Positions 29,201 to 56,841 are shown, numbered from the stretch's first letter. The stretch: 56,841 nt of DNA from a virus (IMGVR_UViG_3300049811_000087:1-56841), one strand, 5' to 3'. Notes: a model not told the origin generated them from the letters alone. A program made the numbers and translations.

Positions 29201-29218
29201 ACAACGCTTATAATGAGA
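29201..29218 (+). promoter_or_regulatory. Conserved phage promoter-like motif, copy 1
   Basis: ACAACGCTTATAATGAGA, upstream of RBS and ATG 29238. Confidence 0.8.
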
Positions 29219-29237
29219 CCCTACGGAAAGGTGAACT

Positions 29238-29525
29238 ATGTTCAACCCCTTCAAACGAGAAGAGGACCGTCAGTTGGATGTCCTGATCAATCGTGTGATC
29301 GACGACATGGAATTGTATGGCCCGGACTCTGAGGAATACCCGAGGTTGGTCGAGACCCTGAAGAAGCTTTACAAGCTGAAGGCGCAACAGAAGCCCCGGC
29401 GCGTGAGCCCAGACACGGTCCTGATCGTCCTCGGGAACATCCTTGGTATTCTGGTCATCGTTGCATACGAAGAGAAGCACGTTATCACATCCAAGGCCTA
29501 CTCGACTTTCGTGAAGAGGAACTAG
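29238..29525 (+). CDS. Membrane protein (cassette-type gene)
   Basis: GAAAGG RBS; VSPDTVLIVLGNILGILVIVAYE TM segment. Confidence 0.7.
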   Translation: MFNPFKREEDRQLDVLINRVIDDMELYGPDSEEYPRLVETLKKLYKLKAQQKPRRVSPDTVLIVLGNILGILVIVAYEEKHVITSKAYSTFVKRN

Positions 29526-29543
29526 TACCATACGGAGGTGCAA

Positions 29544-29590
29544 GCACAGGAGTTGTGTTGGAGAAATCTGACGCAGCTTCTGTGTTTTGC
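29544..29590 (+). terminator. Long GAAA-tetraloop hairpin, probable terminator
   Basis: GCACAGGAGTTGTGTTGGA-GAAA-TCTGACGCAGCTTCTGTGT followed by TTT. Confidence 0.6.
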
Positions 29591-29670
29591 ATTTCTAACA
29601 ACCATTCCTAAAATTGCCTGGGGGGATATTTTGGAAAAAGTTTCCAGGTTTAACAGGGGTGACAAAATTT

Positions 29671-29690
29671 ACAACGCCTATAATGGGAGA
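29671..29690 (+). promoter_or_regulatory. Conserved phage promoter-like motif, copy 2 (heads replication operon)
   Basis: ACAACGCCTATAATGGGAGA. Confidence 0.8.
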
Positions 29691-31883: not shown

Positions 31884-31896
31884 CCGGAGGACTACT

Positions 31897-32790: not shown

Positions 32791-33626
32791 TGAACTCATT
32801 ACAATTTTATATTTCAGAATTCACGAAAAACAAGACCTTGGTCAGGGCTACTGCTTTTTGCGGTGGCTTTGGCTTTGGTTTCTATCTAGCTAGTCAGAAA
32901 ACAACCGAAATTGTTATCTATCCGGATGGCGGAGAACCAAACGACGTCAAAGTCGACGAGGATGATAATCCAGACGACGCCGTAATCCTCCATTTTCAAA
33001 AGCGTTTAGACGAGATTGCGGCTGAAGAAGAGGTAGCCGCTTTTGACGACAATCCGGTTATTGACCCGCCAGTAAACGACCCAAAAGATATTCGTGTCGA
33101 TTTAGACAAACTTCGGCATAGAGACGCTCTTATTGAAGAGTTTGGGTATACGGAAGGTATGCGTCGATACCAGAAAGAGTATTCTTTAGGCATGGACACG
33201 ACACCTTCAGAAGAGGCACAGATAGAAAACGTTTTCGGAAAAGACCCTAAGCCGTGGGATCAAGAAGCAGAAAAGGCAGCTCGCACCAACTCGGAAATTT
33301 ACGTTCTGCACAAAGACGAGTTTTGGCGAGACGAGATGGACTATACCCAAACGACTCTCACTTACTATTCCGGCGATGATATTCTTGTAGACCAAGATGA
33401 GGTCCCGATCTACAACTACCGGAACGTTGTCGGAGAGTTGCAGTTCGGGTATGGGTCCGAGGATCGAAATGCCTTCTATGTGCGAAATCATATTCTCAAG
33501 GCAGAATACGAGATTCTCCATGATCGAGGAAGTTATGCTATTGAAGTGCTCGGGTTAGAGTACGAAGAGCAGCAAGAAAGGGCTTCCTTAAAACACTCTC
33601 TCGGTAAATTCAGACCGGATGATTGA
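32790..33626 (+). CDS. Acidic hypothetical protein
   Basis: TLTYYSGDDILVD...YVRN...EYEI; overlapping stop/start. Confidence 0.65.
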   Translation: MNSLQFYISEFTKNKTLVRATAFCGGFGFGFYLASQKTTEIVIYPDGGEPNDVKVDEDDNPDDAVILHFQKRLDEIAAEEEVAAFDDNPVIDPPVNDPKDIRVDLDKLRHRDALIEEFGYTEGMRRYQKEYSLGMDTTPSEEAQIENVFGKDPKPWDQEAEKAARTNSEIYVLHKDEFWRDEMDYTQTTLTYYSGDDILVDQDEVPIYNYRNVVGELQFGYGSEDRNAFYVRNHILKAEYEILHDRGSYAIEVLGLEYEEQQERASLKHSLGKFRPDD

Positions 33627-34153
33627 TCATGGAAGAGTCATTGGAGACCCTGTACTTCGAGTGGCTCTACGCAAAGGTGATGTTATCCGATCAGCCTGCT
33701 CAGTCATACACAAATCTAATTAAAGCTCTATATGATACTGAATTTGTGTGGCTTGTAGTTGGCGATGACAACAGAGCTCAAGATGGACTAGACCTTCGCA
33801 GTGAGTTTTTGGAGGCAGCTCAATTTGACCCTGATTGTGTGTACGATTTCATGTTTGGCTGTACTGTTCTTGAAATGCTGATTGCGTTCTCGAGAAGAGC
33901 CGAGTTTCAAACTGATATTCGTCCTAACGAATGGTTTTGGGAGTTCGTTACAAATCTCGGACTAGCAGACCATCACGATGATGACATAGATATCCAGTCG
34001 GTTAACGATATTCTATACAACTTTGTGTGGAGAACATATGATTATACTGGTTTAGGCGGGTTATTTCCTCTTAACAATCCGCTTGTGGACCAAACTGAGA
34101 TAGAAATCTGGTATCAATTCTGCGCCTATCTTGTTGAGAAAGGCTTTGACTAG
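33623..34153 (+). CDS. Conserved hypothetical phage protein
   Basis: YFEWL...DDNRAQDGLDLR...LEMLIA...GGLFPL...EIWYQ. Confidence 0.65.
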   Translation: MIMEESLETLYFEWLYAKVMLSDQPAQSYTNLIKALYDTEFVWLVVGDDNRAQDGLDLRSEFLEAAQFDPDCVYDFMFGCTVLEMLIAFSRRAEFQTDIRPNEWFWEFVTNLGLADHHDDDIDIQSVNDILYNFVWRTYDYTGLGGLFPLNNPLVDQTEIEIWYQFCAYLVEKGFD

Positions 34154-34165
34154 AAGGGAGGTTCT

Positions 34166-37100: not shown

Positions 37101-37900
37101 CAGCCGGGCGCCTCCTGGACGGTAAGCTCGGACCGTTTGTCGGAGGCACTGATGAAGACCTGGAAGCTCTGTCTTACGCTCTTAAGATCGTAATCAACAT
37201 TGTCTATGGTTTGACCAGCGCTCGATTCGACAACCCCTTCAGAGATTTCCGAAACAAGGATAACATTGTCGCCAAGCGAGGCGCTTTGTTCATGATCGAT
37301 CTCAAAGAAGCGGTGCAAGATCGAGGCTTTACGGTTGCACATATTAAGACGGACTCCATCAAGATCCCGAACGCAACGCCGGAGATCATTGAGTTTGTCA
37401 CCCAGTTTGGTCGAGAGTACGGATACGACTTCGAGCACGAGGGAACCTATGACAAATTCTGCTTGGTCAACGATGCGGTTTATATTGCTAAAGAAGATAA
37501 TCACTGGAATGCTGTTGGGGCTCAGTTTCAACATCCGTACGTCTACAAGACTTTATTTACGCATGAGCCGATTGAATTCGAGGATTACTGCGAAGCCCGA
37601 AGCGTTATTCAAGGGGTCATGTACCTCGACTTCGTTGGGGACGGCAATCTCTCCGATTTCAAGCACGTCGGAAGGACTGGAATGTTCGTTCCAGTTAAAT
37701 CCGGAGGCGGCTCGCTTCTTAGAGTCAAGGATGAAAAAGCCTACGCCGTGACAGGGACCAAAGACTATAAGTGGGTCGAGTCTTCTGTTGCTAAGGAAAA
37801 CCCAGACATTGAGGTAGACTACTCATATTTCGAAGACCTTGTTACAAAGGCCAAAGAAGCAATTGAGAAGTTTGGCTCTTTTGATGAGTTTGTGAGTTAA
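34166..37900 (+). CDS. Multifunctional replicase: SF3 (D5-like) helicase + AEP primase + 3'-5' exonuclease + family B DNA polymerase
   Basis: GPPGSGKST; VIDFD...SKSGNGLHLHY; FFDVEV, GFNNRRYD, YCQNDV; LDVASMHP, KIVINIVYG, IKTDS. Confidence 0.88.
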   Translation: MDFYNIVVKEKKDGALQIRPDFKVGRSKDLMTRGGAFYAIWDEEKGLWSTDIYDVQRLVDADLYKYQEEMLNRDGVSPTVATLESNSTKLWDEFQRFVRNSGNNSHNLDEVLTFANTEVKKTDYVSKRLPYSLHPGKTDAWDQIVGTLYSEEEREKIEWAIGAVVSGDSKHIQKFLVFYGPPGSGKSTILNIIQKLFDGYTAVFDARELAGNNNAFATAAFKSNPLVAIQHDGDLSRIYDNTKLNSIVAHETMTVNEKYRAPFETKSNAFLFMGTNLPVKITDAKSGIIRRLIDVVPTQRTIDHNTYHILMDQIDFELGAIAYLCLERYLALGKNYYSSYRPTEMMLQTDVFYNFVEAHFDIFKLEDGVTLKRAWTLYKEFCADTGIEKTLPQYKIREHLKDYFEEFHDRIKIDGVDVRSYYKGFKHLAPGPPRSQMPVKTDDPYVIELGEHPSVFDEMFANQPAQYANEEGTPSKKWENVTTKLRDIDTSKLHYVQVPKEHVVIDFDLTDEDGNKSLEACLEKAKTWPATYAELSKSGNGLHLHYNYHGDVEALSNVYGVGIEVKTLLGNSSLRRQLTKCNMVNVTPLYEGLPTKEKKVIDAQSIKSERALRDLISRNLRKEVHPGTKPSIDFIHKILSDAHNNGLSYDVRDMRGDILSFAAMSTNHATDCIKLVQKMEFVGQNEMPVITSADEKPLVFFDVEVYPNLFVVCWKAEDSADVAKLINPSSEEIEELLTHKLVGFNNRRYDNHILYARYLGYSIDELYNLSNRIINGGSSRDVMFGEAYNLSYADIYDFSSKKQGLKKFQIELGILHMELDIPWDKPVPEDLWDKVVTYCQNDVMATEAVFKNRIQDFNARKILAELSGLSVNHTTQAHTAKIIFGDDKRPQDKFVYTDLSKEFPGYIFDGKESYYKGEITGEGGYVYAEPGIYENVALLDVASMHPTSIECLDLFGPYTSRFADLKAARLAIKHKDYATAGRLLDGKLGPFVGGTDEDLEALSYALKIVINIVYGLTSARFDNPFRDFRNKDNIVAKRGALFMIDLKEAVQDRGFTVAHIKTDSIKIPNATPEIIEFVTQFGREYGYDFEHEGTYDKFCLVNDAVYIAKEDNHWNAVGAQFQHPYVYKTLFTHEPIEFEDYCEARSVIQGVMYLDFVGDGNLSDFKHVGRTGMFVPVKSGGGSLLRVKDEKAYAVTGTKDYKWVESSVAKENPDIEVDYSYFEDLVTKAKEAIEKFGSFDEFVS

Positions 37901-37902
37901 TT

Positions 37903-38088
37903 ATGAAATTTGGAGAATGGCAAGCAAGTCGTGGTATTCAACCTTGGATAACAAAACCGCAGCATATTGCTCCGGCTATAGACGCTCTGACTGCGGCTAT
38001 ATTTAAAGCTGCAGACGGTATGAAATCATTTGGAGAAACCGTGGCTAGGCTTTCAGCATGCTTTAATTCAAACAAGGAGGATATTTAG
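37903..38088 (+). CDS. Hypothetical protein (paralogue of 44877..45071)
   Basis: F.EWQ.S.GI.PW..KP shared. Confidence 0.55.
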   Translation: MKFGEWQASRGIQPWITKPQHIAPAIDALTAAIFKAADGMKSFGETVARLSACFNSNKEDI

Positions 38089-38456
38089 TGGATTCAGATA
38101 TGTTGGAAGAAGTAATTAGCAAACAATTTGTTATTTGTAGTGAGCTTCTTTCTCAAAAAGCTAAAGAGTATGCGCCCGTAGATCGGCTTCATAATTTCCG
38201 AGTCGCTGCCGAGATGCAGAATGTGCGACTTGAGACGGCTTTGGCCGGTATGATGGCTAAGCATACCGTTAGTCTCTACGACCTTATTGAGCGTACACAA
38301 AAGGGGGAGGTGTTCGGTAGCGATATTTGGGTTGAAAAGATTACCGATCACATGAACTATCTCCTTCTCCTCAAGGCGATTCTTGTTGAGGAATGGGATA
38401 AACCCACAATAACCGTTAATACTATTACTGAAAGGGATGTTGCCTATCATGGTTAG
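38088..38456 (+). CDS. All-alpha nucleotide-modification-associated / MazG-like protein (putative)
   Basis: K..EYA..D.LHNF...K...EKITD..NY.LL pattern. Confidence 0.45.
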   Translation: MDSDMLEEVISKQFVICSELLSQKAKEYAPVDRLHNFRVAAEMQNVRLETALAGMMAKHTVSLYDLIERTQKGEVFGSDIWVEKITDHMNYLLLLKAILVEEWDKPTITVNTITERDVAYHG

Positions 38457-38916
38457 AGAAGAAGCAAAGACTTTTATGGTGGAGGATGCTCAGCTCATCT
38501 TTCGTAATTTCTCGGGAAAGGAGGGGCAGTACAACCGAGAAGGAGACCGAAACTTCGCCGTTATTCTTGACGATGAGTCGGCACAGGCCATGATCGAGGA
38601 CGGTTGGAACATTCGTTTCCTGGAGCCTCGGGAGGAGGGCGATACCACAACGCCTTATATATCAGTCACTGTCAAGTTCGACATCATGCCTCCGACGGTT
38701 ATCATGATTACTTCTTCTGGGCGTGTCCGTCTTGATGAAGACTCTGTCGCCGTTCTTGACTGGGCGAACATCCAGACTGTGGATCTAATTGGTCGAGCGT
38801 ACGAGTGGACTGTTAACGGTAAGAGCGGCATCAAGGCTTACCTGAAGTCCATGTACGTGACCATCGAAGAGGACGCCCTCGAGCGTAAGTACGCCAACGT
38901 GGAGGACAAGACCTGA
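38449..38916 (+). CDS. Single-stranded DNA-binding protein (putative)
   Basis: FRNFSG....YN.EG.RNF...GWN...KAYLK; downstream of the replicase. Confidence 0.6.
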   Translation: MVREEAKTFMVEDAQLIFRNFSGKEGQYNREGDRNFAVILDDESAQAMIEDGWNIRFLEPREEGDTTTPYISVTVKFDIMPPTVIMITSSGRVRLDEDSVAVLDWANIQTVDLIGRAYEWTVNGKSGIKAYLKSMYVTIEEDALERKYANVEDKT

Positions 38917-39546: not shown

Positions 39547-39554
39547 CAAAATCT

Positions 39555-39575
39555 ACAACGCCTATAATGAAGAGA
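39555..39575 (+). promoter_or_regulatory. Conserved phage promoter-like motif, copy 3 (heads accessory/tRNA operon)
   Basis: TAACA-N6-ACAACGCCTATAATGAAGAGA. Confidence 0.8.
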
Positions 39576-39634
39576 AAGGCGATATCGAATGATATTACCT
39601 GTGGATTCCCATCCACACCTCTTCTTTTATTTTT
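39569..39634 (+). ncRNA. Structured leader / small RNA (three-way junction plus U-tract)
   Basis: GAAGAG/CTCTTC closes GGCGATATC/GATATTACC and TGTGGAT/ATCCACA hairpins, then TTTTATTTTT. Confidence 0.55.
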
Positions 39635-42313: not shown

Positions 42314-42387
42314 GCTCCTCTAGCTCAATTGGTTAGAGCAACGGACTTTTAATCCGAAGGTTCTGGGTTCAAGTCCCAGGGGGAGCA
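42314..42387 (+). tRNA. tRNA-Lys(UUU)
   Basis: GCTCCTC/GGGGAGC acceptor, GCTC/GAGC D stem, CTTTTAA anticodon loop, GTTCAAGT T loop; CCA not encoded. Confidence 0.9.
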
Positions 42388-42423
42388 CTGTAATCAACCA
42401 TTTTTAATTCAAAGGAGAGTGCC

Positions 42424-44321: not shown

Positions 44322-44397
44322 GGGCCGGTAGCATGTTCTGGTAAATGCACCGAGCTTATATCTCGGCGATAGGTGGGTTCAAATCCCCCCCGGCCTA
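44322..44397 (+). tRNA. tRNA-Ile(UAU)
   Basis: GGGCCGG/CCGGCCT acceptor, GCAT/ATGC D stem, CCGAG-CTTATAT-CTCGG anticodon arm, GTTCAAAT T loop. Confidence 0.85.
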
Positions 44398-44414
44398 CTA
44401 ACAGAAAGAAACTT

Positions 44415-44876: not shown

Positions 44877-45071
44877 ATGACTTTTGCTCAGTGGCAATCT
44901 TCAAAAGGAATTACCCCTTGGGTTTTCAAAAAGCCTCATTTGCGTTTTGGTATAGAAGACGTACAAATGGCCTTTCAAGCTTTAGCTTCGTCTTTAGAAG
45001 CTTTAACTGACGCATCTAAAAAAACCGAAAAAGCTTTTACCTTTTTAATCAACTCAATTAATAAGGAGTAA
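44877..45071 (+). CDS. Hypothetical protein (paralogue of 37903..38088)
   Basis: AAGGA RBS; shared N-terminus. Confidence 0.55.
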   Translation: MTFAQWQSSKGITPWVFKKPHLRFGIEDVQMAFQALASSLEALTDASKKTEKAFTFLINSINKE

Positions 45072-45074
45072 TCT

Positions 45075-45149
45075 ATGGAAATCTTACTTATCCCTTTTAT
45101 TTCTTTTATTGTAGCGCTTATTGTTGCTTTTCTAATCAGCAGGAGATAA
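45075..45149 (+). CDS. 24-aa hydrophobic peptide (not in ORF track)
   Basis: AAGGAG RBS; MEILLIPFISFIVALIVAFLISRR. Confidence 0.45.
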   Translation: MEILLIPFISFIVALIVAFLISRR

Positions 45150-45150
45150 C

Positions 45151-45504
45151 ATGGACATCTTGGAAGACCTTGGTAATTGTGTGAAGATTAATGACGTGAT
45201 CATTCCAGCAGTAAACATCCAGGTCGAGGGATTCCCAAAGTGGATCGATGCCACCTGGTACGGCATCTACTTTGAAGTCTTGTTTGAAGACGGGACGCTT
45301 TGGGAGGTTGAGCAGCGCCACGCAGATCTTCCTGTTGTGATCATGATATATCCCTTCTGGGGGGTCAGTCGTAAACTCTTTTGTGTTGTTAGCCAGCACG
45401 AAAACTGGGTGGACTTCTTGAATCTCTACCAGACTAATCTGTTTGTTCGAGATCGAACGAAAGAACTTCATTGGTTGGACTACAAGCATTGGATGGCTGC
45501 GTAA
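45151..45504 (+). CDS. Hypothetical protein (paralogue of 43926..44312)
   Basis: AGGAG RBS; shared N-terminal half. Confidence 0.65.
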   Translation: MDILEDLGNCVKINDVIIPAVNIQVEGFPKWIDATWYGIYFEVLFEDGTLWEVEQRHADLPVVIMIYPFWGVSRKLFCVVSQHENWVDFLNLYQTNLFVRDRTKELHWLDYKHWMAA

Positions 45505-45692
45505 TGGCTAGAATTGATCAACCGATTCTTGAATGTGACAGGTGTAAGGCCCGAACGAGCGACCTAAAGGAAATGGCTAATTATATTCAGTTGTACCAGA
45601 ACCCTATCTCGCAAAAGGAACAGAAGTTTGATCTTTGTCGTTCTTGTGCGAGGGACTTCTTTGAATTCTTCATGCGTGGAAGGATGATCTAA
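45504..45692 (+). CDS. Small Zn-finger protein
   Basis: CDRC...DLCRSC; TAATG overlap. Confidence 0.6.
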   Translation: MARIDQPILECDRCKARTSDLKEMANYIQLYQNPISQKEQKFDLCRSCARDFFEFFMRGRMI

Positions 45693-45698
45693 CCTAAC

Positions 45699-45783
45699 GC
45701 CACCATGGCGGAATAGGCAGACGCATTCGGCTTAAACCCGAAGGACTGTGATGGTCGTGGGGGTTCGAATCCCCCTGGTGGCA
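45699..45783 (+). tRNA. tRNA-Leu(UAA)
   Basis: GCCACCA/TGGTGGC acceptor, TTCGG-CTTAAAC-CCGAA anticodon arm, long variable arm, GGGGG-TTCGAAT-CCCCC T arm. Confidence 0.9.
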
Positions 45784-45856
45784 CGCTGAAAAGCAAACAA
45801 AAAAGTGGGGCCCGACATAGTAATCAAAACACTAATGAAGCGTAATAATAGAAAAC

Positions 45857-46246
45857 ATGATTCAATTACCGGTATTGTTCAATGGAACGGAACTTGTTGG
45901 AACTCTTCTCATTGAGGAAAGAATTCTCCAACTGTACGGTAACGGCCGAGACGTAATCTTCAATCCAACAATCGTCTCAAAGAGCTCTGTAGATGAAGAC
46001 GGAAACGCCGACACTACGCTTGAAATTACAGCTCTTAATGCCTTTGTCTTGCCGTCCGAACCAACCGTAGGGCCTAAAAGCCCACATCTAACCGGGTACA
46101 TTTGGGAATGCGAGGCGGGACACGAAAGCTACGTTTCAGATATTGAAATGCGGCTGGTTAATCGCACGCCCAATTGCCCTGTAGTACTAGAATCTGGAGT
46201 TGTGTGTCATAAACCGCTTATTCATAGATTGCGTTTAGCAGACTAA
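45857..46246 (+). CDS. Hypothetical protein with C-terminal Zn ribbon
   Basis: WECEAGH...CP...C. Confidence 0.55.
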   Translation: MIQLPVLFNGTELVGTLLIEERILQLYGNGRDVIFNPTIVSKSSVDEDGNADTTLEITALNAFVLPSEPTVGPKSPHLTGYIWECEAGHESYVSDIEMRLVNRTPNCPVVLESGVVCHKPLIHRLRLAD

Positions 46247-46265
46247 GCAAAAACTAACAAAATTC

Positions 46266-46285
46266 ACAACGCTTATAATGAGAGA
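46266..46285 (+). promoter_or_regulatory. Promoter-like motif copy 4
   Basis: ACAACGCTTATAATGAGAGA. Confidence 0.8.
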
Positions 46286-46314
46286 GAACACCAACCCCAT
46301 ACGGAGGAATCATC

Positions 46315-46554
46315 ATGGAAGAGTTCAACAGCATCGAGACCGAGCTGGAGACCGACACCGAAGAGACTGACACCGAGGCAGGTTCGGTTCTTGCCACCGT
46401 CGCCGTGTTCGGCATCGGCACCATCGTGGGTGCTGCTGCTGCACGTGGCTACGACAAGGCGAAGACCACCGTCAAGGAGCAGCTCGAGGCTCGTCGGGCC
46501 CGCAAGGCCGCGATCGCGAACGCCATCGAGACCACCGCCACAGAGGCGAAGTGA
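46315..46554 (+). CDS. Cassette gene: acidic N-terminus plus hydrophobic segment
   Basis: GGAGG RBS; GC3-rich codons. Confidence 0.7.
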   Translation: MEEFNSIETELETDTEETDTEAGSVLATVAVFGIGTIVGAAAARGYDKAKTTVKEQLEARRARKAAIANAIETTATEAK

Positions 46555-46558
46555 CTCA

Positions 46559-46610
46559 AGAGGAAGTGTCCCTTGTAGCGTAAAACCTACAAGGGCTCTT
46601 TCTTTTTCTT
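46559..46610 (+). terminator. Intrinsic terminator
   Basis: CCCTTGTAG/CTACAAGGG stem plus T-tract. Confidence 0.7.
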
Positions 46611-46621
46611 AAACAACTTTT

Positions 46622-46641
46622 ACAACGCCTATAATGAGAGA
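46622..46641 (+). promoter_or_regulatory. Promoter-like motif copy 5
   Basis: ACAACGCCTATAATGAGAGA. Confidence 0.8.
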
Positions 46642-46658
46642 CTACCAAAGGAGTTTAA

Positions 46659-46802
46659 ATGAGCGTACTGATCAGATTCTTCGATCTTGTCGAGAGCAAT
46701 CGTCAGCGTGAAGAAAAGCGTCGTCAGAACAAAAGCCGTAACCGGATGATGTTCATGACGTTCGGACTAGCTGGCTTGTTCCTGGGAAGGAAGAAGAGCT
46801 GA
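46659..46802 (+). CDS. Cassette gene, 47 aa (not in ORF track)
   Basis: AAGGAG RBS; MSVLIRFFDLVESNRQREEKRRQNKSRNRMMFMTFGLAGLFLGRKKS. Confidence 0.65.
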   Translation: MSVLIRFFDLVESNRQREEKRRQNKSRNRMMFMTFGLAGLFLGRKKS

Positions 46803-46827
46803 AGACACCCACTACCGGGTGGACTCT

Positions 46828-46859
46828 AAAAGAGGGGCACTGCGGTGCCTTTCTTTTTT
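46828..46859 (+). terminator. Intrinsic terminator
   Basis: AAAAGAGGGGCAC-TGCG-GTGCCTTTCTTTTTT. Confidence 0.7.
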
Positions 46860-46886
46860 GATTTAATCTAGTAAGGAGCTTTTGCT

Positions 46887-47072
46887 ATGTTTTTAGTTTT
46901 TATCCCACTGGGAATTTCTGCAGCGACTCTGGCGTACACCTATGTTGTGAGTAAGAAGATCAAAGAAGATATTGCTGTGTTGGATGGTACTCTCGAGGGT
47001 CTTATTGACGCTTTATATCAGGAACGCATTGACGGTATGTTTAAATTTATAACAGAAGAGCTCGACGATTAG
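46887..47072 (+). CDS. Small membrane protein
   Basis: AAGGAG RBS; N-terminal TM; no promoter motif of its own. Confidence 0.6.
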   Translation: MFLVFIPLGISAATLAYTYVVSKKIKEDIAVLDGTLEGLIDALYQERIDGMFKFITEELDD

Positions 47073-47080
47073 CATTTTTC

Positions 47081-47100
47081 GCAACGCTTATAATGAGAGA
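47081..47100 (+). promoter_or_regulatory. Promoter-like motif copy 6
   Basis: GCAACGCTTATAATGAGAGA. Confidence 0.8.
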
Positions 47101-47117
47101 CTACAGAGGAGAATGCA

Positions 47118-47282
47118 ATGTTTTGGATTGTTTATTCATACGTCGTCGCCGTTACCATCGGAATTCTCGGTTTCATCATCTGGAGCCTAAAGCAAGATCT
47201 TCACGCCGCAGATGAGTACATCGATGAACTCGAGGAAAAGTGCGATACGCTGGATAAGTTCCGACAGATCGTCATGAACTGA
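47118..47282 (+). CDS. Cassette gene, 54-aa TM plus coiled-coil peptide (not in ORF track)
   Basis: GAGGAG RBS; MFWIVYSYVVAVTIGILGFIIWSLKQDLHAADEYIDELEEK... Confidence 0.7.
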   Translation: MFWIVYSYVVAVTIGILGFIIWSLKQDLHAADEYIDELEEKCDTLDKFRQIVMN

Positions 47283-47290
47283 AGGAGTTG

Positions 47291-47330
47291 AAAAGTTGAG
47301 GGGGTTACTACAACCCCTCTTCTTTTTTCT
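47291..47330 (+). terminator. Intrinsic terminator
   Basis: GAGGGGGTT/AACCCCTC stem plus T-tract. Confidence 0.7.
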
Positions 47331-47340
47331 AACATATTTC

Positions 47341-47360
47341 ACAACGCCTATAATGAGAGA
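47341..47360 (+). promoter_or_regulatory. Promoter-like motif copy 7
   Basis: ACAACGCCTATAATGAGAGA. Confidence 0.8.
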
Positions 47361-47378
47361 CTACCAAAGGAGTAACCT

Positions 47379-47552
47379 ATGGAGAAGTTGAAGACCAAGC
47401 TCAAGAAGGAATGGGAAGAGCGCCCGATCATCGTGATCACAGCCGGAAGCGTGGCAGCAAGCATGCTGATCAAGCTGCTGGAAGTGACGAACGAGACGCG
47501 CAACTCCCGTGCCTGGGCGAAGGAGGTCAAGCGACGCTCCAAGATGTCCTGA
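47379..47552 (+). CDS. Cassette gene, 57 aa (not in ORF track)
   Basis: AAGGAG RBS; MEKLKTKLKKEWEERPIIVITAGSVAASMLIKLL... Confidence 0.7.
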   Translation: MEKLKTKLKKEWEERPIIVITAGSVAASMLIKLLEVTNETRNSRAWAKEVKRRSKMS

Positions 47553-47560
47553 GCAACATC

Positions 47561-47600
47561 TCAAAAGGAGAAGGCCCCACAAGGCTTTCTCTTTTTTCTT
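47561..47600 (+). terminator. Intrinsic terminator (repeat family)
   Basis: AAAAGGAGAAGGCC-CCACAA-GGCTTTCTCTTTTTT. Confidence 0.75.
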
Positions 47601-47610
47601 AACATTTTTC

Positions 47611-47630
47611 GCAACGCTTATAATGAGAGA
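47611..47630 (+). promoter_or_regulatory. Promoter-like motif copy 8
   Basis: GCAACGCTTATAATGAGAGA. Confidence 0.8.
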
Positions 47631-47644
47631 CATAAGGAGAAATC

Positions 47645-47779
47645 ATGCAGATGTACCAGATGTCAGAGAAAGAAGCATCACGAGCACTGGCCCGCTTTGT
47701 CGTCACATTTGTGGCGCTCAAGGTGGCCCTGTACGTGAGCATCAACCTACTGGCACGGGCACTTCGCGAGAAGTCCTGA
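47645..47779 (+). CDS. Cassette gene, 44-aa TM peptide (not in ORF track)
   Basis: AAGGAG RBS; MQMYQMSEKEASRALARFVVTFVALKVALYVSINLLARALREKS. Confidence 0.7.
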   Translation: MQMYQMSEKEASRALARFVVTFVALKVALYVSINLLARALREKS

Positions 47780-47781
47780 AG

Positions 47782-47820
47782 TCAAAAAGAGGGGGCCCCA
47801 CAAGGCTTTCTCTTTTTTCT
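47782..47820 (+). terminator. Intrinsic terminator (repeat family)
   Basis: AAAAAGAGGGGGCC-CCACAA-GGCTTTCTCTTTTTT. Confidence 0.75.
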
Positions 47821-47830
47821 AACATTTTTC

Positions 47831-47850
47831 GCAACGCTTATAATGAGAGA
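47831..47850 (+). promoter_or_regulatory. Promoter-like motif copy 9
   Basis: GCAACGCTTATAATGAGAGA. Confidence 0.8.
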
Positions 47851-47867
47851 CAACAAGAGGAGACATA

Positions 47868-48032
47868 ATGTTCTGGATGCTATTCACAATCATCTTGTCG
47901 ATCGTCACCGCAACCGCCATCGGCGTTGCCGTCTACGCACTACTCGAAGAGTACAGGCAGATGGCACAGCAGATCAAGGAAGACGAAGAACAGATCGATG
48001 AGTTGAAGCGAACCATCATGAGCCTGGTCTAA
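47868..48032 (+). CDS. Cassette gene, 54-aa TM plus coiled-coil peptide (not in ORF track)
   Basis: GAGGAG RBS; MFWMLFTIILSIVTATAIGVAVYALLEEYRQMAQQIKEDEEQIDELKR... Confidence 0.7.
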   Translation: MFWMLFTIILSIVTATAIGVAVYALLEEYRQMAQQIKEDEEQIDELKRTIMSLV

Positions 48033-48042
48033 CAAGATCATC

Positions 48043-48080
48043 TCAAAAAGAGGAGGCCCCACAAGGCTTCCCTTTTTTCT
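48043..48080 (+). terminator. Intrinsic terminator (repeat family)
   Basis: AAAAAGAGGAGGCC-CCACAA-GGCTTCCCTTTTTT. Confidence 0.75.
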
Positions 48081-48091
48081 TAACATTATCT

Positions 48092-48111
48092 ACAATGCTT
48101 ATAATGAGAGA
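48092..48111 (+). promoter_or_regulatory. Promoter-like motif copy 10
   Basis: ACAATGCTTATAATGAGAGA. Confidence 0.78.
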
Positions 48112-48127
48112 CACAGAAGGAGAAATC

Positions 48128-48262
48128 ATGTTGGAAACAACAATCTTGGTCATGTTGGTCTTGTTCCCGCTCTTCGTCCTGCTCATCACCTGGTTGGTGG
48201 TGTTCAAGGCGTTGGGATGGATCAAGAACAGCATCGGCCGGTTGTTCACCCTGCGTGGATGA
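48128..48262 (+). CDS. Cassette gene, 44-aa TM peptide (not in ORF track)
   Basis: AAGGAG RBS; MLETTILVMLVLFPLFVLLITWLVVFKALGWIKNSIGRLFTLRG. Confidence 0.7.
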   Translation: MLETTILVMLVLFPLFVLLITWLVVFKALGWIKNSIGRLFTLRG

Positions 48263-48274
48263 CACACACGTGTT

Positions 48275-48311
48275 GAAAAGAGGGGGCCCTACAAGGCTTT
48301 CTCTTTTTTCT
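48275..48311 (+). terminator. Intrinsic terminator (repeat family)
   Basis: AAAAGAGGGGGCC-CTACAA-GGCTTTCTCTTTTTT. Confidence 0.75.
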
Positions 48312-48322
48312 TAACATGTTCT

Positions 48323-48342
48323 ACAACGCCTATAATGAGAGA
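48323..48342 (+). promoter_or_regulatory. Promoter-like motif copy 11
   Basis: ACAACGCCTATAATGAGAGA. Confidence 0.8.
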
Positions 48343-48361
48343 CGACAAAAGGAGAATTGTC

Positions 48362-48547
48362 ATGAAGACCAATGAGGAATTGAAGACTACCCGAGCGAAC
48401 ATCGACATCGACTGGAACCTAGTTCTGGTTGCCCTGTGTACTTACTGGGCGACACTGGACGGAACCACGCCGGTGTCCGCGGCTCTCAAGGAAGAAATCT
48501 TCGAGGAGATCAAAAGCCTATCACGACAAGTCGGACTGAATATCTGA
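48362..48547 (+). CDS. Cassette gene, 61 aa
   Basis: AAGGAG RBS before ATG 48362; the track start 48335 is inside the promoter motif. Confidence 0.7.
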   Translation: MKTNEELKTTRANIDIDWNLVLVALCTYWATLDGTTPVSAALKEEIFEEIKSLSRQVGLNI

Positions 48548-48548
48548 C

Positions 48549-48588
48549 TCAAAAAAGGAATAGGCCCTAACAAGGCTTATTCTTTTTT
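48549..48588 (+). terminator. Intrinsic terminator (repeat family)
   Basis: AAAAAAGGAATAGGCC-CTAACAA-GGCTTATTCTTTTTT. Confidence 0.75.
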
Positions 48589-48601
48589 GCTAACAAAAAC
48601 T

Positions 48602-48621
48602 ACAACGCCTATAATGAGAGA
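48602..48621 (+). promoter_or_regulatory. Promoter-like motif copy 12
   Basis: ACAACGCCTATAATGAGAGA. Confidence 0.8.
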
Positions 48622-48639
48622 CAACAGAAGGAGATTGTA

Positions 48640-48804
48640 ATGTTGAAGGCCATCAAGGTCGTCGTGTACACCATCATCACCATCCTGACCGGACTGGGTA
48701 CGCTCGGAGTCATGGGCTTCGGGTGGATCAGCTACCGCGAGGGTTCGATGAAGAAGGGCGCACTGACCGTCATGGACGCCGTCGACACCATCGACACCAT
48801 CTGA
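48640..48804 (+). CDS. Cassette gene, 54-aa TM peptide (not in ORF track)
   Basis: AAGGAG RBS; MLKAIKVVVYTIITILTGLGTLGVMGFGWISYREG... Confidence 0.7.
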   Translation: MLKAIKVVVYTIITILTGLGTLGVMGFGWISYREGSMKKGALTVMDAVDTIDTI

Positions 48805-48812
48805 GAGCAATC

Positions 48813-48856
48813 TCAAAGGAGAAGGCCCCCTAACAAGGGCTTTCTTCTTTTATTTT
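48813..48856 (+). terminator. Intrinsic terminator (repeat family)
   Basis: AAAGGAGAAGGCCC-CCTAACAA-GGGCTTTCTTCTTT. Confidence 0.7.
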
Positions 48857-48886
48857 CTTAATAACAAAACAATAGGAGGAAAAGTA

Positions 48887-49069
48887 ATGAAGTTCACTGG
48901 AGGATATGTGTTGGGAGCCTTGACGGTCGTTGGCATGGGGGTGTCATTCGTCGCAGGGATTGTCGCATGTGATTGGACATACTCCAAGAAGCAGGAGGCT
49001 GCATCTAAGATTTCAGACGCAACGGTAGCAAGCGTCATCGGTGAGTACATCAAGGCAAAGAGGAACTAA
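48887..49069 (+). CDS. Small membrane protein
   Basis: AGGAGG RBS; N-terminal TM. Confidence 0.65.
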   Translation: MKFTGGYVLGALTVVGMGVSFVAGIVACDWTYSKKQEAASKISDATVASVIGEYIKAKRN

Positions 49070-49299
49070 TGGTCATTATCCCGATTGAACCGAACACTTT
49101 GGATATCATCGCTGCTATGAACGGTGGTTTGAAGCCAAAGATCGACCCCAAGGAACATTCGAGCTTCATCTATCATGGTAAAGACAAGCTGAACGAGATT
49201 GTGCCTTCGATCTACGTTGGTACTTTATTGGCGTCTGGAGACTATCAGATAATCGAGATGCGGGCGATTGTCAAGAACGTTGAAGAAAAAGGAGTATAA
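49069..49299 (+). CDS. Hypothetical protein
   Basis: TAATG overlap. Confidence 0.6.
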   Translation: MVIIPIEPNTLDIIAAMNGGLKPKIDPKEHSSFIYHGKDKLNEIVPSIYVGTLLASGDYQIIEMRAIVKNVEEKGV

Positions 49300-49451
49300 T
49301 GTCAGAGAAGCCTGTCGGTAAAGAGACGTACGAGATTCTCAAGATCCTTAAGCAGACCTACATCGATGAGGGTCTGTGGATGAAGAATCGTATTCGGTGC
49401 GAGAACATCCAGGCAGACATCGACCTTTACGAGAGGTTCAACAAAAAATAA
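49299..49451 (+). CDS. Hypothetical protein, 50 aa (not in ORF track)
   Basis: AAGGAG RBS, TAATG overlap; MSEKPVGKETYEILK... Confidence 0.6.
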   Translation: MSEKPVGKETYEILKILKQTYIDEGLWMKNRIRCENIQADIDLYERFNKK

Positions 49452-49459
49452 CAGGTTTT

Positions 49460-49479
49460 ACAACGCTTATAACGAGAGA
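49460..49479 (+). promoter_or_regulatory. Promoter-like motif copy 13
   Basis: ACAACGCTTATAACGAGAGA. Confidence 0.75.
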
Positions 49480-49496
49480 CAACAGAAGGAGTTGTA

Positions 49497-49730
49497 ATGC
49501 TTGCAGTAACCGCATTCTGGTCGAACGATTCGTTCCGACTGAACTACGTGTCTGACGACATCGCAGAAGCTGTTCCGAGCGCTTTCATCAAGGCTTACCC
49601 TGAGGGGGCGGCCATGGTGAAGAAGCACATCGAGAGCAGGAAGCTGACGAAGTCCGGCAAATACGTGTTCGTCACGGGCGAAGATGGACGACTGCTAGGG
49701 TACGAGCGAGTACGAGACAACGAGGGCTGA
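49497..49730 (+). CDS. Cassette gene, 77 aa
   Basis: AAGGAG RBS. Confidence 0.7.
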   Translation: MLAVTAFWSNDSFRLNYVSDDIAEAVPSAFIKAYPEGAAMVKKHIESRKLTKSGKYVFVTGEDGRLLGYERVRDNEG

Positions 49731-49738
49731 AAGGAGCT

Positions 49739-49775
49739 CAAAAGGTTGGGGGTGGCAACACCCCTTTCCTTTTTT
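49739..49775 (+). terminator. Intrinsic terminator
   Basis: GGGGTG-GCAA-CACCCC stem plus T-tract. Confidence 0.7.
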
Positions 49776-49787
49776 GTCACATTATTC

Positions 49788-49807
49788 ACAACGCTTATAA
49801 TGAGAGA
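49788..49807 (+). promoter_or_regulatory. Promoter-like motif copy 14
   Basis: ACAACGCTTATAATGAGAGA. Confidence 0.8.
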
Positions 49808-49826
49808 CAACCATAAGGAGACTAAG

Positions 49827-50039
49827 ATGAACCGAGTTCTTGGTAAGCTTGAAGTCGTTGTGAATGACGGACGTTGGCACGCCTACGGAGATCTCACTGA
49901 TCCTGGAACAAACTACGCTATGGGCGTATTGACCGGGATGGGTGGAATCAACGAAACGGTGACCAACGGCATCTGGGAGTTCACAGTGGTTCAGGCTGAA
50001 GACGGACTGTTGATGACATCACTGTTGCCAATCAGTTGA
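49827..50039 (+). CDS. Cassette gene, 70 aa
   Basis: AAGGAG RBS before ATG 49827. Confidence 0.7.
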   Translation: MNRVLGKLEVVVNDGRWHAYGDLTDPGTNYAMGVLTGMGGINETVTNGIWEFTVVQAEDGLLMTSLLPIS

Positions 50040-50040
50040 A

Positions 50041-50078
50041 TCAAAAAGGGATGGCCCCTAACAAGGGCTTTCTCTTTT
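50041..50078 (+). terminator. Intrinsic terminator (repeat family)
   Basis: AAAAAGGGATGGCCC-CTAACAA-GGGCTTTCTCTTTT. Confidence 0.7.
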
Positions 50079-50081
50079 GCA

Positions 50082-50390
50082 ATGACTATTATTTTTAGTC
50101 GTATAGGGAAACAAATGGAAGAAACAATACAAGAGTATATTGTACGGTCGTTTGAAAAAGCTTTTATTGACACTAATTGGTTAAAAGGTTATTTGTGTTT
50201 ACGCTGTCATCCAAAAGGTTTGCTTACGGACGACCGTCCAGATGGAACGACATGGTGCCCGTATTGTGGTAAAGATCCGCTTATGCATGGGCCTGAAATC
50301 CCGGTAAAACCTATTAAAGAAAAATTAAAAATGCGAGGAAGTAGAGCTACAGCCATGTGGGTCGATGAGATTTATAGGATGGATATATGA
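50082..50390 (+). CDS. Zn-ribbon protein
   Basis: CLRC...WCPYCG; start uncertain. Confidence 0.5.
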   Translation: MTIIFSRIGKQMEETIQEYIVRSFEKAFIDTNWLKGYLCLRCHPKGLLTDDRPDGTTWCPYCGKDPLMHGPEIPVKPIKEKLKMRGSRATAMWVDEIYRMDI

Positions 50391-50572
50391 AAGCTATTGA
50401 GTTATTTCACATGTTAGGTGACGTTGGTGTTTATAATAACCAGCGGTTAAGCGAATATAAAGTAGTAGGGCCTGATGGTCGATCAATTTCTGGCGTTCAT
50501 TTTAATCATGAAAAAAAACAAGTAATTCTTCGTCAAAGAAACATTAAAGTTGAAAATCGAGTTGATTTATGA
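50387..50572 (+). CDS. Hypothetical protein
   Basis: ATGA overlap. Confidence 0.5.
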   Translation: MKAIELFHMLGDVGVYNNQRLSEYKVVGPDGRSISGVHFNHEKKQVILRQRNIKVENRVDL

Positions 50573-50590
50573 AGTCTATGGAGGAATTTA

Positions 50591-51070
50591 ATGACTAGAA
50601 CACGAACTGAACAACCATTACAAATGGGAGCGCGTAAAAAAGCTCGTCGTCTTCATAAAGTGGAAAGCATGATTGCCGAACTTCAATCTGAATATGAAGA
50701 ATTAAGAGCTGATCTCTTAGACTGGAAATGGCGTGAGTCTAAGCGTCTTGGTGTTGATGTTCCCGCCAATGCTCTTTTGTTAGACATTCTTGAGCTTATT
50801 GAAATAACGGAGGATGACAAATGGCTTTGGTTAGGTGTTACTAACAACAAAAACCTGCCGACCATTCGGTATCGAGATGGTCAAAAGGCTCACGAGCGCT
50901 CTGTTGTGCGCGTGCTTGCTGAGTTTTTTGAAATCATTGATGAAGACTGGGAAGGCACGTTGTATCCTACAAATGGTACTGACGATGTAAATCCTTGGCA
51001 CCGGGAATTGAGAGCTCTTCCTGAAGGTAAGTTTAGAGGAACTCCTAGAGGAGTCTATAAATTTGAGTAG
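50591..51070 (+). CDS. Hypothetical protein, possibly degenerate HNH-like
   Basis: GGAGG RBS; WLWLG......P......VNPWH resembles an HNH lacking the Cys/His residues. Confidence 0.5.
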   Translation: MTRTRTEQPLQMGARKKARRLHKVESMIAELQSEYEELRADLLDWKWRESKRLGVDVPANALLLDILELIEITEDDKWLWLGVTNNKNLPTIRYRDGQKAHERSVVRVLAEFFEIIDEDWEGTLYPTNGTDDVNPWHRELRALPEGKFRGTPRGVYKFE

Positions 51071-53074: not shown

Positions 53075-53094
53075 CGTATACGGTAATTCCTTCT

Positions 53095-53115
53095 ACAACG
53101 TATATAATAGAGAGA
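53095..53115 (+). promoter_or_regulatory. Promoter-like motif copy 15 (variant; heads nuclease-RNAP operon)
   Basis: ACAACGTATATAATAGAGAGA followed by a 12-bp hairpin. Confidence 0.65.
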
Positions 53116-53161
53116 GAGGTGCTAAAACAGCATTTCTTTCCTATTTTCTGGAGGAATACCG

Positions 53162-53473
53162 ATGCGAGAGTCCAAATATCAGCGTGACCTCATTGAGAGG
53201 ATCTACCACATTTTACCTGGGTCCGTGGTCATCAAGAATGATCCGACTCGGATACAAGGCATTCCAGATTTGCTGGTTCTTTGGGAAGATAAGTGGGCGA
53301 TGCTTGAAGTTAAGCGTTCAATTTATGAAGATTCTGAACCGAATCAGGAATACTATGTTGCAGAAATGGATCGGATGTCATTTGCAGCTTTCATCTACCC
53401 GGAAAACGAAGACGAGGTTCTAGATGCGCTTCAATCAGCATTTGGACTTAAAAGACAAGCACGCATTTCTTAG
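53162..53473 (+). CDS. VRR-NUC / Holliday-junction-resolvase-like PD-(D/E)xK nuclease
   Basis: MRESKYQ...GIPDL...LEVK...NQ. Confidence 0.75.
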   Translation: MRESKYQRDLIERIYHILPGSVVIKNDPTRIQGIPDLLVLWEDKWAMLEVKRSIYEDSEPNQEYYVAEMDRMSFAAFIYPENEDEVLDALQSAFGLKRQARIS

Positions 53474-53984
53474 TCCTAGTAACTATCATTGGATCAACTA
53501 TAGTGATGCCAAACTAGAAGCTAGGTATACAGCAGCGCAAGCAGCTCGACGAGGAACTGATCTTCATTTATTGGCCCACGAAGCCATTCGATTAGGTGTC
53601 AAATTAGCAAAAAGTAATTTAGCATTGTCGACATACGTCAATGATGCAATTAACTACAAGATGACTTCAGAACAAATCTTGTATTACTCAGACAATTGTT
53701 TTGGTACAGCAGATACTATTTGTTTTCGTCGAAATAAATTAAGGATTCATGACCTGAAAACCGGCGTAACACCAACCAGTGAAAAACAACTGGAAGTTTA
53801 TGCTGCTCTATTTTGTTTAGAGTATGATGTGTTTCCTTATGATATTTCGATAGAATTGCGGATCTATCAAAATGATGAAATTCGCGTATTTGACCCAGTT
53901 CCGGAAGCAATCGAATCTATTATGGGTGTTATAGTTGAGCACAACAACCGAATTGAAGAGTTTCGCAGACAACAGAATCTTTGA
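53424..53984 (+). CDS. Cas4/RecB-like PD-(D/E)xK exonuclease (DUF2800-like)
   Basis: HAFLSPS...GT.LH...E...GTAD...IHDLKTG...QL..YA. Confidence 0.75.
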   Translation: MRFNQHLDLKDKHAFLSPSNYHWINYSDAKLEARYTAAQAARRGTDLHLLAHEAIRLGVKLAKSNLALSTYVNDAINYKMTSEQILYYSDNCFGTADTICFRRNKLRIHDLKTGVTPTSEKQLEVYAALFCLEYDVFPYDISIELRIYQNDEIRVFDPVPEAIESIMGVIVEHNNRIEEFRRQQNL

Positions 53985-56653: not shown

Positions 56654-56841
56654 TGGCTACCGAGTCTATGGTCACCACTACAGACAATCCATTCAATCCT
56701 TTTGATGAGTTCCGTCAATGGTATGCTTTTGATGTTGCACATGGGTACCATACAGCATCCCTAGTGGCACGTCTCACCTTCACTTCAGATGAATTGTCAG
56801 AGCTAGATCAACGTCAGGCTAGAGAAATGGCTGTTGATGAG
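56653..56841 (+). CDS. Conserved hypothetical protein, truncated by window end (not in ORF track)
   Basis: AGGAGG RBS, TGATG overlap; MATESMVTTTDNPFNPFDEFRQWYAFD...GY. Confidence 0.6.
   Translation, partial: MATESMVTTTDNPFNPFDEFRQWYAFDVAHGYHTASLVARLTFTSDELSELDQRQAREMAVDE

Follow-up and report, generated by a model that had tools for sequence, protein, structure and literature searches.

A dense array of very small genes was characterised in the viral record IMGVR_UViG_3300049811_000087, a stretch of 56,841 bp that is referred to as the window and is rated 95% complete. At 46266-50069, between the tRNA-Leu gene and a helicase gene, eleven units follow one another on the + strand, each consisting of a promoter motif, a ribosome-binding site (RBS), one open reading frame (ORF) of 44-79 aa and a terminator. 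The region is probably a hyperplastic early-gene array of a lytic siphophage, made up of insulated monocistronic units that form composite cassettes, similar to the promoter-early stem-loop (PeSL) cassettes of T4-type phages, and that are shuffled by homologous recombination. The content and order of the cassettes differ among relatives, and crossovers located in the promoter repeat were found in cultured relatives.

Anatomy of the array

The 20-nt core of the promoter motif, ACAAYGCYTATAAYGAGAGA, was found 13 times in the window when up to 2 mismatches were allowed, always on the + strand, and not at all in 100 shuffled sequences. Eleven of these copies are packed into 3.6 kb (46266-49807), with consecutive starts separated by 356, 459, 260, 270, 220, 261, 231, 279, 858 and 328 bp. 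Every copy in the array is followed by an RBS of the AGGAG, GGAGG or GAGG type, a single ORF beginning with ATG, and a hairpin with a T-run (Table 1). The Shine-Dalgarno sequence is located 20-25 nt after TATAAT, or 35 nt in unit 1. As predicted from these signals, each unit would combine a strong, conserved promoter and a tightly coupled Shine-Dalgarno sequence with one short ORF and an intrinsic terminator. Four further small ORFs (C, K, L and M) lie behind terminators and have an RBS, but carry neither promoter motif nor terminator of their own, and bring the total to 15.

A scan for hairpins followed by a T-run detected 21 + strand sites in the whole window, 11 of them within 46570-50069, and a second terminator scan of 45000-51000 found 16 sites against 5.5 +/- 2.4 in shuffled sequences. 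Six terminators match the pattern GGCC[CT]{1,3}A{1,2}CAAGG+CTT. The longest self-matches in the window are formed by 11 modules of 68-93 bp that span terminator, promoter and RBS and share 77-94% identity, and repeated DNA is confined to these modules. G-U pairs are present in 9 of the 11 hairpins (19 in total), and the summed hairpin energy is -172.7 kcal/mol for the + strand versus -129.4 kcal/mol for the complement, the + strand fold being the more stable in 10 of 11. When 11 terminators, seven from the window and four from relatives, were aligned and folded with RNAalifold, 6 of 12 pairs stayed paired despite changes on both sides. Distant relatives conserve the C(C/T)A(A)CAAGG sequence of the terminator loop and its 3' shoulder even where the stems differ, possibly as a result of common descent of the module or as a recognition signal.

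The initial annotation, made from the sequence alone, had described eleven such units spaced mostly 220-360 bp apart, with six terminators sharing a GGCC-type sequence, a terminator and promoter repeat of about 80 bp, seven ORFs too short for the ORF track, and selection on the + strand RNA hairpin. All of this is borne out, with 8 of the 10 spacings in that range and 7 of the 11 unit ORFs shorter than 60 aa. Its account of gene content and extent stands for the eleven units but was too narrow, as the region holds 15 ORFs and the motif has further copies at 29201 and 29671, besides weaker ones with TATAAT at 39563 and 53103.

One membrane helix, called as a 19-residue hydrophobic stretch with a Kyte-Doolittle mean of at least 1.6, is predicted for 9 of the 15 ORFs, and most products of the units would be single-pass membrane micro-proteins. 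An early host-takeover or anti-defence role, suggested in the initial annotation, is speculative, the feature displayed by the products being the membrane helix predicted for 9 of 15. Pfam searches with the 15 ORFs gave nothing above the cut-offs, and a search of PHROG gave a family match for ORF E alone, all others having expect (E) values >1e-4. ORFs O, I and E had no tblastn match in phage records, and no homolog of ORF G was detected among 5.8 billion proteins. There are no paralogous pairs among the ORFs of the window; D and G, which both start with MFW, were considered and rejected, as their alignment (E 0.014) covers the membrane helix only.

The mean G+C content at third codon positions (GC3) is 0.68 in the cassette ORFs versus 0.45 in 22 core genes (Mann-Whitney p = 1.4e-5), and in 13 of the 15 the third position is the richest in G+C of the three. 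Among core genes, a GC3 of 0.62 is seen only in the capsid-protease fusion (14858-16861) and the major tail protein gene (17508-18392), and a bias shared with these genes suggests high expression. On this reading, the ORFs would be coding in the frames given and highly expressed in a host rich in G+C. For ORF O, metagenomes provide two homologs that are 74% identical and, because these measure 69-70 aa, the start at 49827 giving 70 aa was preferred. A protein collection includes a 95-aa version of ORF O (49746-50039) with its start upstream, inside the terminator-promoter module.

Table 1. Features of the array, and related signals and genes in the window. TM, predicted transmembrane helix; L numbers are labels for related loci.
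Feature	Position	Strand	Description
Unit 1	46266..46612	+	Promoter core 46266-46285; ORF A 46315-46554, 79 aa, 1 TM; terminator 46570-46595 and T-run; homologs in L011, L013, L015
Unit 2	46622..46866	+	Promoter 46622-46641; ORF B 46659-46802, 47 aa; terminator 46829-46856; homologs in L011, L013, L015
ORF C	46887..47072	+	61 aa, 1 TM; RBS, no promoter motif or terminator; GC3 low (0.40); homologs in L011, L013
Unit 3	47081..47330	+	Promoter 47081-47100; ORF D 47118-47282, 54 aa, 1 TM; terminator 47300-47318; weak homologs only (E ~1e-4)
Unit 4	47341..47602	+	Promoter 47341-47360; ORF E 47379-47552, 57 aa, 1 TM; terminator 47566-47593; phrog_18827 (function unknown), E 6e-9; homologs in L011, L013
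Unit 5	47611..47823	+	Promoter 47611-47630; ORF F 47645-47779, 44 aa, 1 TM; terminator 47788-47813; 72-bp repeats, 94% identical, on both sides; no homolog in relatives' loci
Unit 6	47831..48083	+	Promoter 47831-47850; ORF G 47868-48032, 54 aa, 1 TM; terminator 48052-48071; self-match only among 5.8 billion proteins
Unit 7	48092..48314	+	Promoter 48092-48111; ORF H 48128-48262, 44 aa, 1 TM; terminator 48278-48305; no homolog in relatives' loci
Unit 8	48323..48593	+	Promoter 48323-48342; ORF I 48362-48547, 61 aa; terminator 48557-48583; no match in phage records
Unit 9	48602..48861	+	Promoter 48602-48621; ORF J 48640-48804, 54 aa, 1 TM; terminator 48815-48850; homolog in L011
ORFs K, L, M (abutting)	48887..49451	+	K 60 aa, 1 TM; L 76 aa; M 50 aa; no promoter motif or terminator; K homologs in L011, L013, L015; L homologs in L013, L023
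Unit 10	49460..49775	+	Promoter 49460-49479 (TATAAC); ORF N 49497-49730, 77 aa; terminator 49748-49765; homologs in L011, L013
Unit 11	49788..50080	+	Promoter 49788-49807; ORF O 49827-50039, 70 aa; terminator 50053-50069; two metagenomic homologs
Conserved C(C/T)A(A)CAAGG loops, examples	window 47577-47584, 48567-48575; L015 7330; L083 5155; Circum 25400-28200		In terminators
Two promoter copies, start of right arm	29201..29690	+	29201 precedes 95-aa ORF (phrog_5818); 29671 precedes structured leader with T-run
Weaker promoter copy	39551..39576 (TATAAT at 39563)	+	TACAACGCC TATAAT GAAGAGA
Variant promoter	53091..53150 (TATAAT at 53103)	+	TACAACGTA TATAAT AGAGAGA, then hairpin and T-run at once
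Single-strand annealing protein	38437..38916	+	phrog_4787, E 2e-66; candidate catalyst of repeat recombination
Exonuclease	53424..53984	+	phrog_3953, E 8e-75; partner of annealing protein
Two-barrel RNA-polymerase-like protein, 890 aa	53981..56653	+	phrog_4291; DFDGD at residues 511-515, C-terminal helix-turn-helix; candidate promoter reader

Cassette variation and exchange at the repeats

The helicase gene adjoining the array was used as a query and detected 45 loci in IMG/VR, of which the 24 with enough upstream DNA were analysed; these include the near-duplicates L010/L011 and L035/L036. L011, L013 and L015 have arrays of the same architecture in the interval from tRNA-Leu to the helicase gene, with 10, 8 and ~9 promoters, respectively, compared with 11 in the window. 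In the 5.5 kb before the helicase gene there are 11 + strand terminators in the window, 8 in L010, 8 in L011, 6 in L013, 9 in L015 and 6 in L034, and 0-4 in 18 other loci. The same count in cultured phages is 1 for Circum, 2 for Scarif and 0 for Rima, where the small genes are tightly packed. In L041 and L044, which share 50% identity with the window in the helicase and 48-49% in the polymerase-like gene, this 5.5 kb contains no terminators or TAYAAT sites.

Homologs of 9 of the 15 ORFs (A, B, C, D, E, J, K, L and N) were found in the arrays of relatives. They share 25-55% identity, D being the weakest at 24-25%, whereas the helicase is 84% and 79% identical in the array-bearing relatives. The window has the order A B C D E [F G H I] J K [L M] N O, L011 has A x D B x C x E J K N, and L013 has A C x D x B x E N x x x x K L. 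Units F to I thereby separate E from J in the window, and E and J are adjacent in L011. DNA homology blocks between the window and L011 or L013 correspond to whole units and end at the modules, and L015 includes a 275-bp cassette duplication. Nucleotide searches with the array in near and distant modes against 50,697 phage records gave no match. The suggestion in the initial annotation that whole units are swapped, gained or lost agrees with these arrangements, in which units come, go and change order among relatives and cassette content is variable and not fixed.

Exchange at the repeats can be followed in the cultured Arthrobacter phages. In Circum, the tail genes are followed directly by a similar array, whose promoters lie at 24986, 25434, 25759, 26107 and 28230 of the Circum record. 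Of the Circum genes, gp29 and gp30 are missing from Mudcat and gp30 from Arcadia, and KeaneyLin carries a replacement. The Mudcat and Arcadia junctions have the left flank of one Circum promoter copy and switch, inside the shared core, to the right flank of a later copy, which is a signature of homologous exchange between repeats. The deletions in these cultured cousins thus occurred where recombination between repeats had been proposed. The 5-nt spacer (N5) between TACA and TATAAT has an identity of 0.75 within genomes and 0.43 between genomes, and homogeneity within but not between genomes is expected from exchange among copies. On the best reading, array variation runs on homologous recombination and not on an integron mechanism. 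The terminator-promoter-RBS modules would then serve both as expression signals and as substrates for recombination, through which whole units would be deleted, duplicated, reordered or imported, and the annealing protein and exonuclease of the phage probably assist in this.

The repeats may instead be alike through selection for strong promoters and terminators, with cassette differences produced by illegitimate recombination and gene decay and the repeats incidental. Functional constraint alone does account for part of the similarity, and the relatives of the window are distant enough, judged by their cassette proteins, for many routes to lead to the differences seen. However, the Circum, Mudcat and Arcadia junctions map precisely to the promoter core that the copies share, positions differing from genome to genome are uniform inside each one, and the homology blocks with L011 and L013 both start and stop at modules, making this explanation unlikely. 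A true integron-like system, in which a recombinase encoded elsewhere acts at a conserved site, is highly improbable. The resemblance is superficial, namely a row of short, unrelated single-gene cassettes with conserved repeats between them and a content that varies among relatives. Searches of the record with the Pfam profiles PF00589 (tyrosine recombinases, for IntI) and PF00239 (serine recombinases) found no match and no integrase or resolvase, and the window has no attI/attC-like site. Integron cassettes are promoterless and depend on a common Pc, whereas each cassette here has its own promoter and terminator, the hairpins are U-run terminators read on one strand, and the crossovers in relatives look homologous and not site-specific. 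The phrase of the initial annotation, integron-like but without a recombinase, is correct as far as tyrosine and serine recombinases are concerned, but general recombination proteins (annealing protein, exonuclease) are encoded; as a comparison it is a loose analogy, and the PeSL cassettes fit instead. It is also very unlikely that some or all units make short non-coding RNAs in place of proteins. The promoters at 29671 and 53103, which lead straight into a structured RNA and a T-run without an intervening ORF, provide a precedent, and six ORFs lack homologs in the loci of relatives. Against this, each of the 15 ORFs begins with ATG behind an RBS at a suitable distance, GC3 exceeds the other codon positions in most of them, nine have protein-level homologs of like length, and ORF O matches two proteins of its own size.

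Several points weigh against interpreting the array as PeSL-like cassettes shuffled by homologous recombination. Junctions inside the repeats were resolved in the cultured cousins and not in the lineage of the window, which has distant relatives only; none closer than 84% helicase-protein identity, and no near-identical genome, was found. ORFs F, G, H, I, M and O have no homolog in the relatives' loci and, for all of these but O, the case for coding consists of the RBS, frame-specific GC3 and context. Uniformity of N5 within genomes could alternatively stem from co-evolution with a phage-encoded reader and not from recombination. Finally, a sigma-A -35 element at 17 bp is ill-matched, the conserved TACA and CGCA lying 5 nt and 14 nt, respectively, before TATAAT.

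The promoter family and its candidate readers

The phage is a siphophage of the supercluster of Arthrobacter AM, Streptomyces and Gordonia DJ phages, and a supercluster including these phages has been described (bioRxiv 10.1101/842583). The promoter architecture CGCA-N2-AATTACA-N5-TATAAT-GAGA is common to the whole supercluster. A consensus from 44 sites in six relatives is tcgCA.aattTACAacgC.TATAATGaga, in which TACA and TATAAT belonged to the selecting pattern and the remaining columns were unselected. Copies of the wider family, CGCA-N2-(A/T)(A/T)TTACA-N5-TATAAT-GAGA, are present in the window on the coding strand of the right arm. Counts of TACA-N5-TATAAT(G), which is confined to the coding strand, were 5 in Circum, 3 in Scarif, 5 in Rima and 7 in Crocheter, with none in reversed-pattern controls, and for the wider family Circum has 8 sites (control 0). 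By pattern, the Gordonia cluster DJ phage Vardy has 8 copies of the family at 31430-38184 (control 0), and Lactococcus phage 1706 has 1 match to TACA-N5-TATAAT(G) versus 1 in the control. A 28-nt version of the motif identified 13 stretches in 12 of 185,579 genomes; the polymerase gene described below is present in 6 of the 10 tested, four on the same 40-60-kb contig. Some contigs with the 28-nt motif are 33-37% G+C, are binned with Firmicutes, and have neither a -35 box nor a TGn element. The exact 20-nt motif detected no further contig in IMG/VR, and in metagenome contigs it detected one short relative (L055) and one chance match.

Only 2 of the 11 array promoters passed a -35/-10 scan, although TATAAT is present. 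A canonical -35 element at 17 bp was considered, but TTGTCC/TTGACC-like hexamers follow only some of the terminator T-runs, inconsistently at 16-20 bp, and none is claimed. At 29671-29750, the promoter is followed directly by a 58-nt RNA of three helices, with a closing stem and U-run ahead of the next RBS. This RNA has a minimum free energy of -22.9 kcal/mol (z = -4.27), equalled by none of 200 shuffled sequences, and could be a small RNA or an attenuator. The promoter and hairpin at 53103 are located upstream of an endonuclease-exonuclease-polymerase operon, and a variant promoter with an immediate hairpin recurs in L015 (~12014), in the Lactococcus phage 1706 record (46476) and in L035 (3977). 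The element at 53103 may gate the last operon and, once the genome is circularised, the late genes of the left arm.

The last gene of this operon predicts an 890-aa protein that shares 53-54% identity with its counterparts in Streptomyces and Arthrobacter phages and matched 250 phage records, among them Gordonia, Curtobacterium, Rhodococcus, Microbacterium, Lactococcus and Faecalibacterium phages. Its DFDGD loop is invariant in 26 sequences, and helix-turn-helix (HTH) motifs are found at both ends, the C-terminal one with weak matches to Sigma70_r4. The Pfam RdRP match is below the cut-off, and a sequence search against PDB chains gave nothing meaningful. A structure model (pLDDT 80.9) is best matched by QDE-1 and the phage polymerases P74 gp62, P32 gp64 and P23-45 gp96, with Foldseek E values of 1e-9 for QDE-1, 3e-7 for P74 gp62 and 5e-7 for P32 gp64, though TM-scores are low (0.23-0.30). 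The double-psi beta-barrel fold of the model and the DxDGD loop place it with the two-barrel enzymes (QDE-1 / YonO / crAss-like) as a predicted polymerase. The homolog in Lactococcus phage 1706, orf75 (38% identity, E 5e-168), is a 'structural protein' by GenBank annotation alone.

The chance that the promoters are read by the host sigma-A holoenzyme, via the -10 element and discriminator, is put slightly above even, and the chance that the phage polymerase reads them somewhat below it. In the latter case the array would be the same, but the single-chain two-barrel RNA polymerase would be carried in the virion and injected, and the micro-genes would be expressed at once, independently of the host enzyme; this version, too, falls a little short of an even chance. 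In crAss-like and Thermus phages, polymerases of this kind are delivered with the virion and serve early transcription. The motif greatly exceeds the length that sigma-A requires, it is kept in Streptomyces, Arthrobacter and Gordonia phages as well as in the low-G+C contigs binned with Firmicutes that lack -35 and TGn elements, and its 28-nt form is rare and found mostly with the polymerase gene in the genomes tested. The DFDGD loop, the C-terminal HTH with its Sigma70_r4 matches, the modelled similarity to QDE-1 and phage polymerases, and the annotation of orf75 in phage 1706 point the same way, and N5 behaves like the specificity region of T7-class promoters, being uniform per genome and different between genomes. 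On the other side, TATAAT is a perfect sigma-A -10 consensus, the polymerase operon itself lies behind such a promoter (53103), and the motif is not enriched in phage 1706. According to the text of the Vardy announcement, the motif of that phage is a sigma-70-type promoter (PMC9671010). YonO, the one characterised relative, is reported in the text on that enzyme to lack a flap domain, to respond little to pausing and to transcribe late genes (PMC5467207), whereas the units here end in canonical hairpin and U-run terminators. A more far-reaching model is put forward tentatively, in which the 28-32-nt element would be the cognate promoter of virion-delivered single-chain two-barrel polymerases with a built-in HTH, the array would be a host-independent immediate-early module, N5 would co-evolve with the enzyme as in the T7 class, and the promoter-attenuator at 53103 would gate a late switch across the cos junction.

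The phage and comparable systems

All genes of the record are on the + strand. Matches to PHROG families identify terminase, portal, fused protease-capsid, major tail protein and tape measure genes in the left half, and a 1244-aa primase-polymerase, the single-strand annealing protein, helicase, HNH endonuclease and exonuclease in the right half. An ORF at 56654-56841 runs past the right end, and its homologs follow the polymerase gene in relatives, indicating that the record ends shortly before the genome does. An Rfam search of the whole window gave three tRNAs and no other match. They are located at 42314-42388 (Lys-UUU), 44322-44398 (Ile-UAU) and 45699-45784 (Leu-UAA), and all read A-ending codons, which fits a phage of 46% G+C in a G+C-rich host. 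An actinobacterial host is plausible.

A cluster of small genes with promoters, RBSs and terminators is also known from the unrelated Bacillus phage SPO1, with which the window shares no related sequences. The host-takeover module of SPO1 lies in the terminal redundancy and groups some two dozen small early genes into numerous short operons, which have terminators and whose promoters and RBSs are strong; one of the genes encodes a small membrane protein that blocks cell division. To our knowledge, repeat-mediated exchange of cassettes has not been reported for that module.

The closest mechanistic parallel is provided by the PeSL cassettes of T4-type phages, described in the texts of the two reports as composites of promoter and stem-loop that mediate modular shuffling (PMC2839356, Arbiol et al. 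2010; PMC4122927, Comeau et al. 2014). In both systems, as far as those texts describe the T4-type elements, composite repeats of a promoter and a stem-loop terminator (PMC2839356) are concentrated in hyperplastic regions ahead of small ORFans, and G-T pairs in the stems indicate reading on one strand. Indel junctions between close relatives lie in the repeats in T4-type phages, as they do among the cultured cousins (Circum compared with Mudcat, Arcadia and KeaneyLin); for the window itself, the ends of homology blocks coincide with the modules. The window has such a repeated intergenic composite, with predicted promoter and terminator activities, in a variable region before small genes that have no Pfam family and differ in content and order among relatives. 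The differences are that PeSLs occur in T4-like myoviruses and the elements described here in siphoviruses of, probably, Actinomycetota; that the stem-loops of the PeSLs occupy five places relative to -35 and -10, whereas the hairpin here is always upstream of the promoter and is a full intrinsic terminator with a U-run; and that the PeSL promoter is the host sigma-70 consensus (-35, -10 and AT-rich upstream region), whereas the promoter here has no canonical -35 and has extra conserved blocks.

Closer to the window in descent, the text of the Vardy announcement (PMC9671010) describes a 50-bp intergenic motif that contains a TATAAT box and is present in five copies, and counts six terminators as well as 13 genes that have membrane or signal motifs; the text on Arthrobacter clusters AM and AU describes arrays of small membrane-protein genes after the tail genes (PMC5513430). 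These phages belong to the same supercluster and share the promoter family, terminators and many small genes with predicted TM segments. Their arrays, as given in those texts, directly follow the tail genes and have several genes per promoter, whereas in the window the interval from tRNA-Leu to the helicase gene holds a second array, which is denser and has a single gene behind each promoter. The words promoter and terminator do not occur in the text of PMC5513430. In the running texts of the literature covered, nothing linking the motif to recombination between repeats or to a phage polymerase was found, the Vardy and Arthrobacter papers mentioning neither, and the Vardy announcement (PMC9671010) was the only description found of a promoter for this polymerase family or these phage clusters.

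The motif and the arrays of small membrane-protein genes are thus already in print for relatives, where the motif was noticed and not interpreted. Shuffling of small early genes through repeats is known from T4-like phages of Gram-negatives, and the present reading extends it to a large and widespread siphophage group, cultured members of which infect Streptomyces, Arthrobacter, Gordonia and Lactococcus. It gives a rule for finding fast-evolving accessory genes in this group, namely to search between terminator-promoter modules, and a precise promoter consensus for phages whose RNA-polymerase-like protein has no known promoter. Early transcription independent of the host would gain a new example in this group if the 890-aa protein does read the sites. 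Candidate roles of the micro-proteins, most of which are predicted single-pass membrane peptides and have codon use like that of the host, are exclusion, a block of division and counter-defence.

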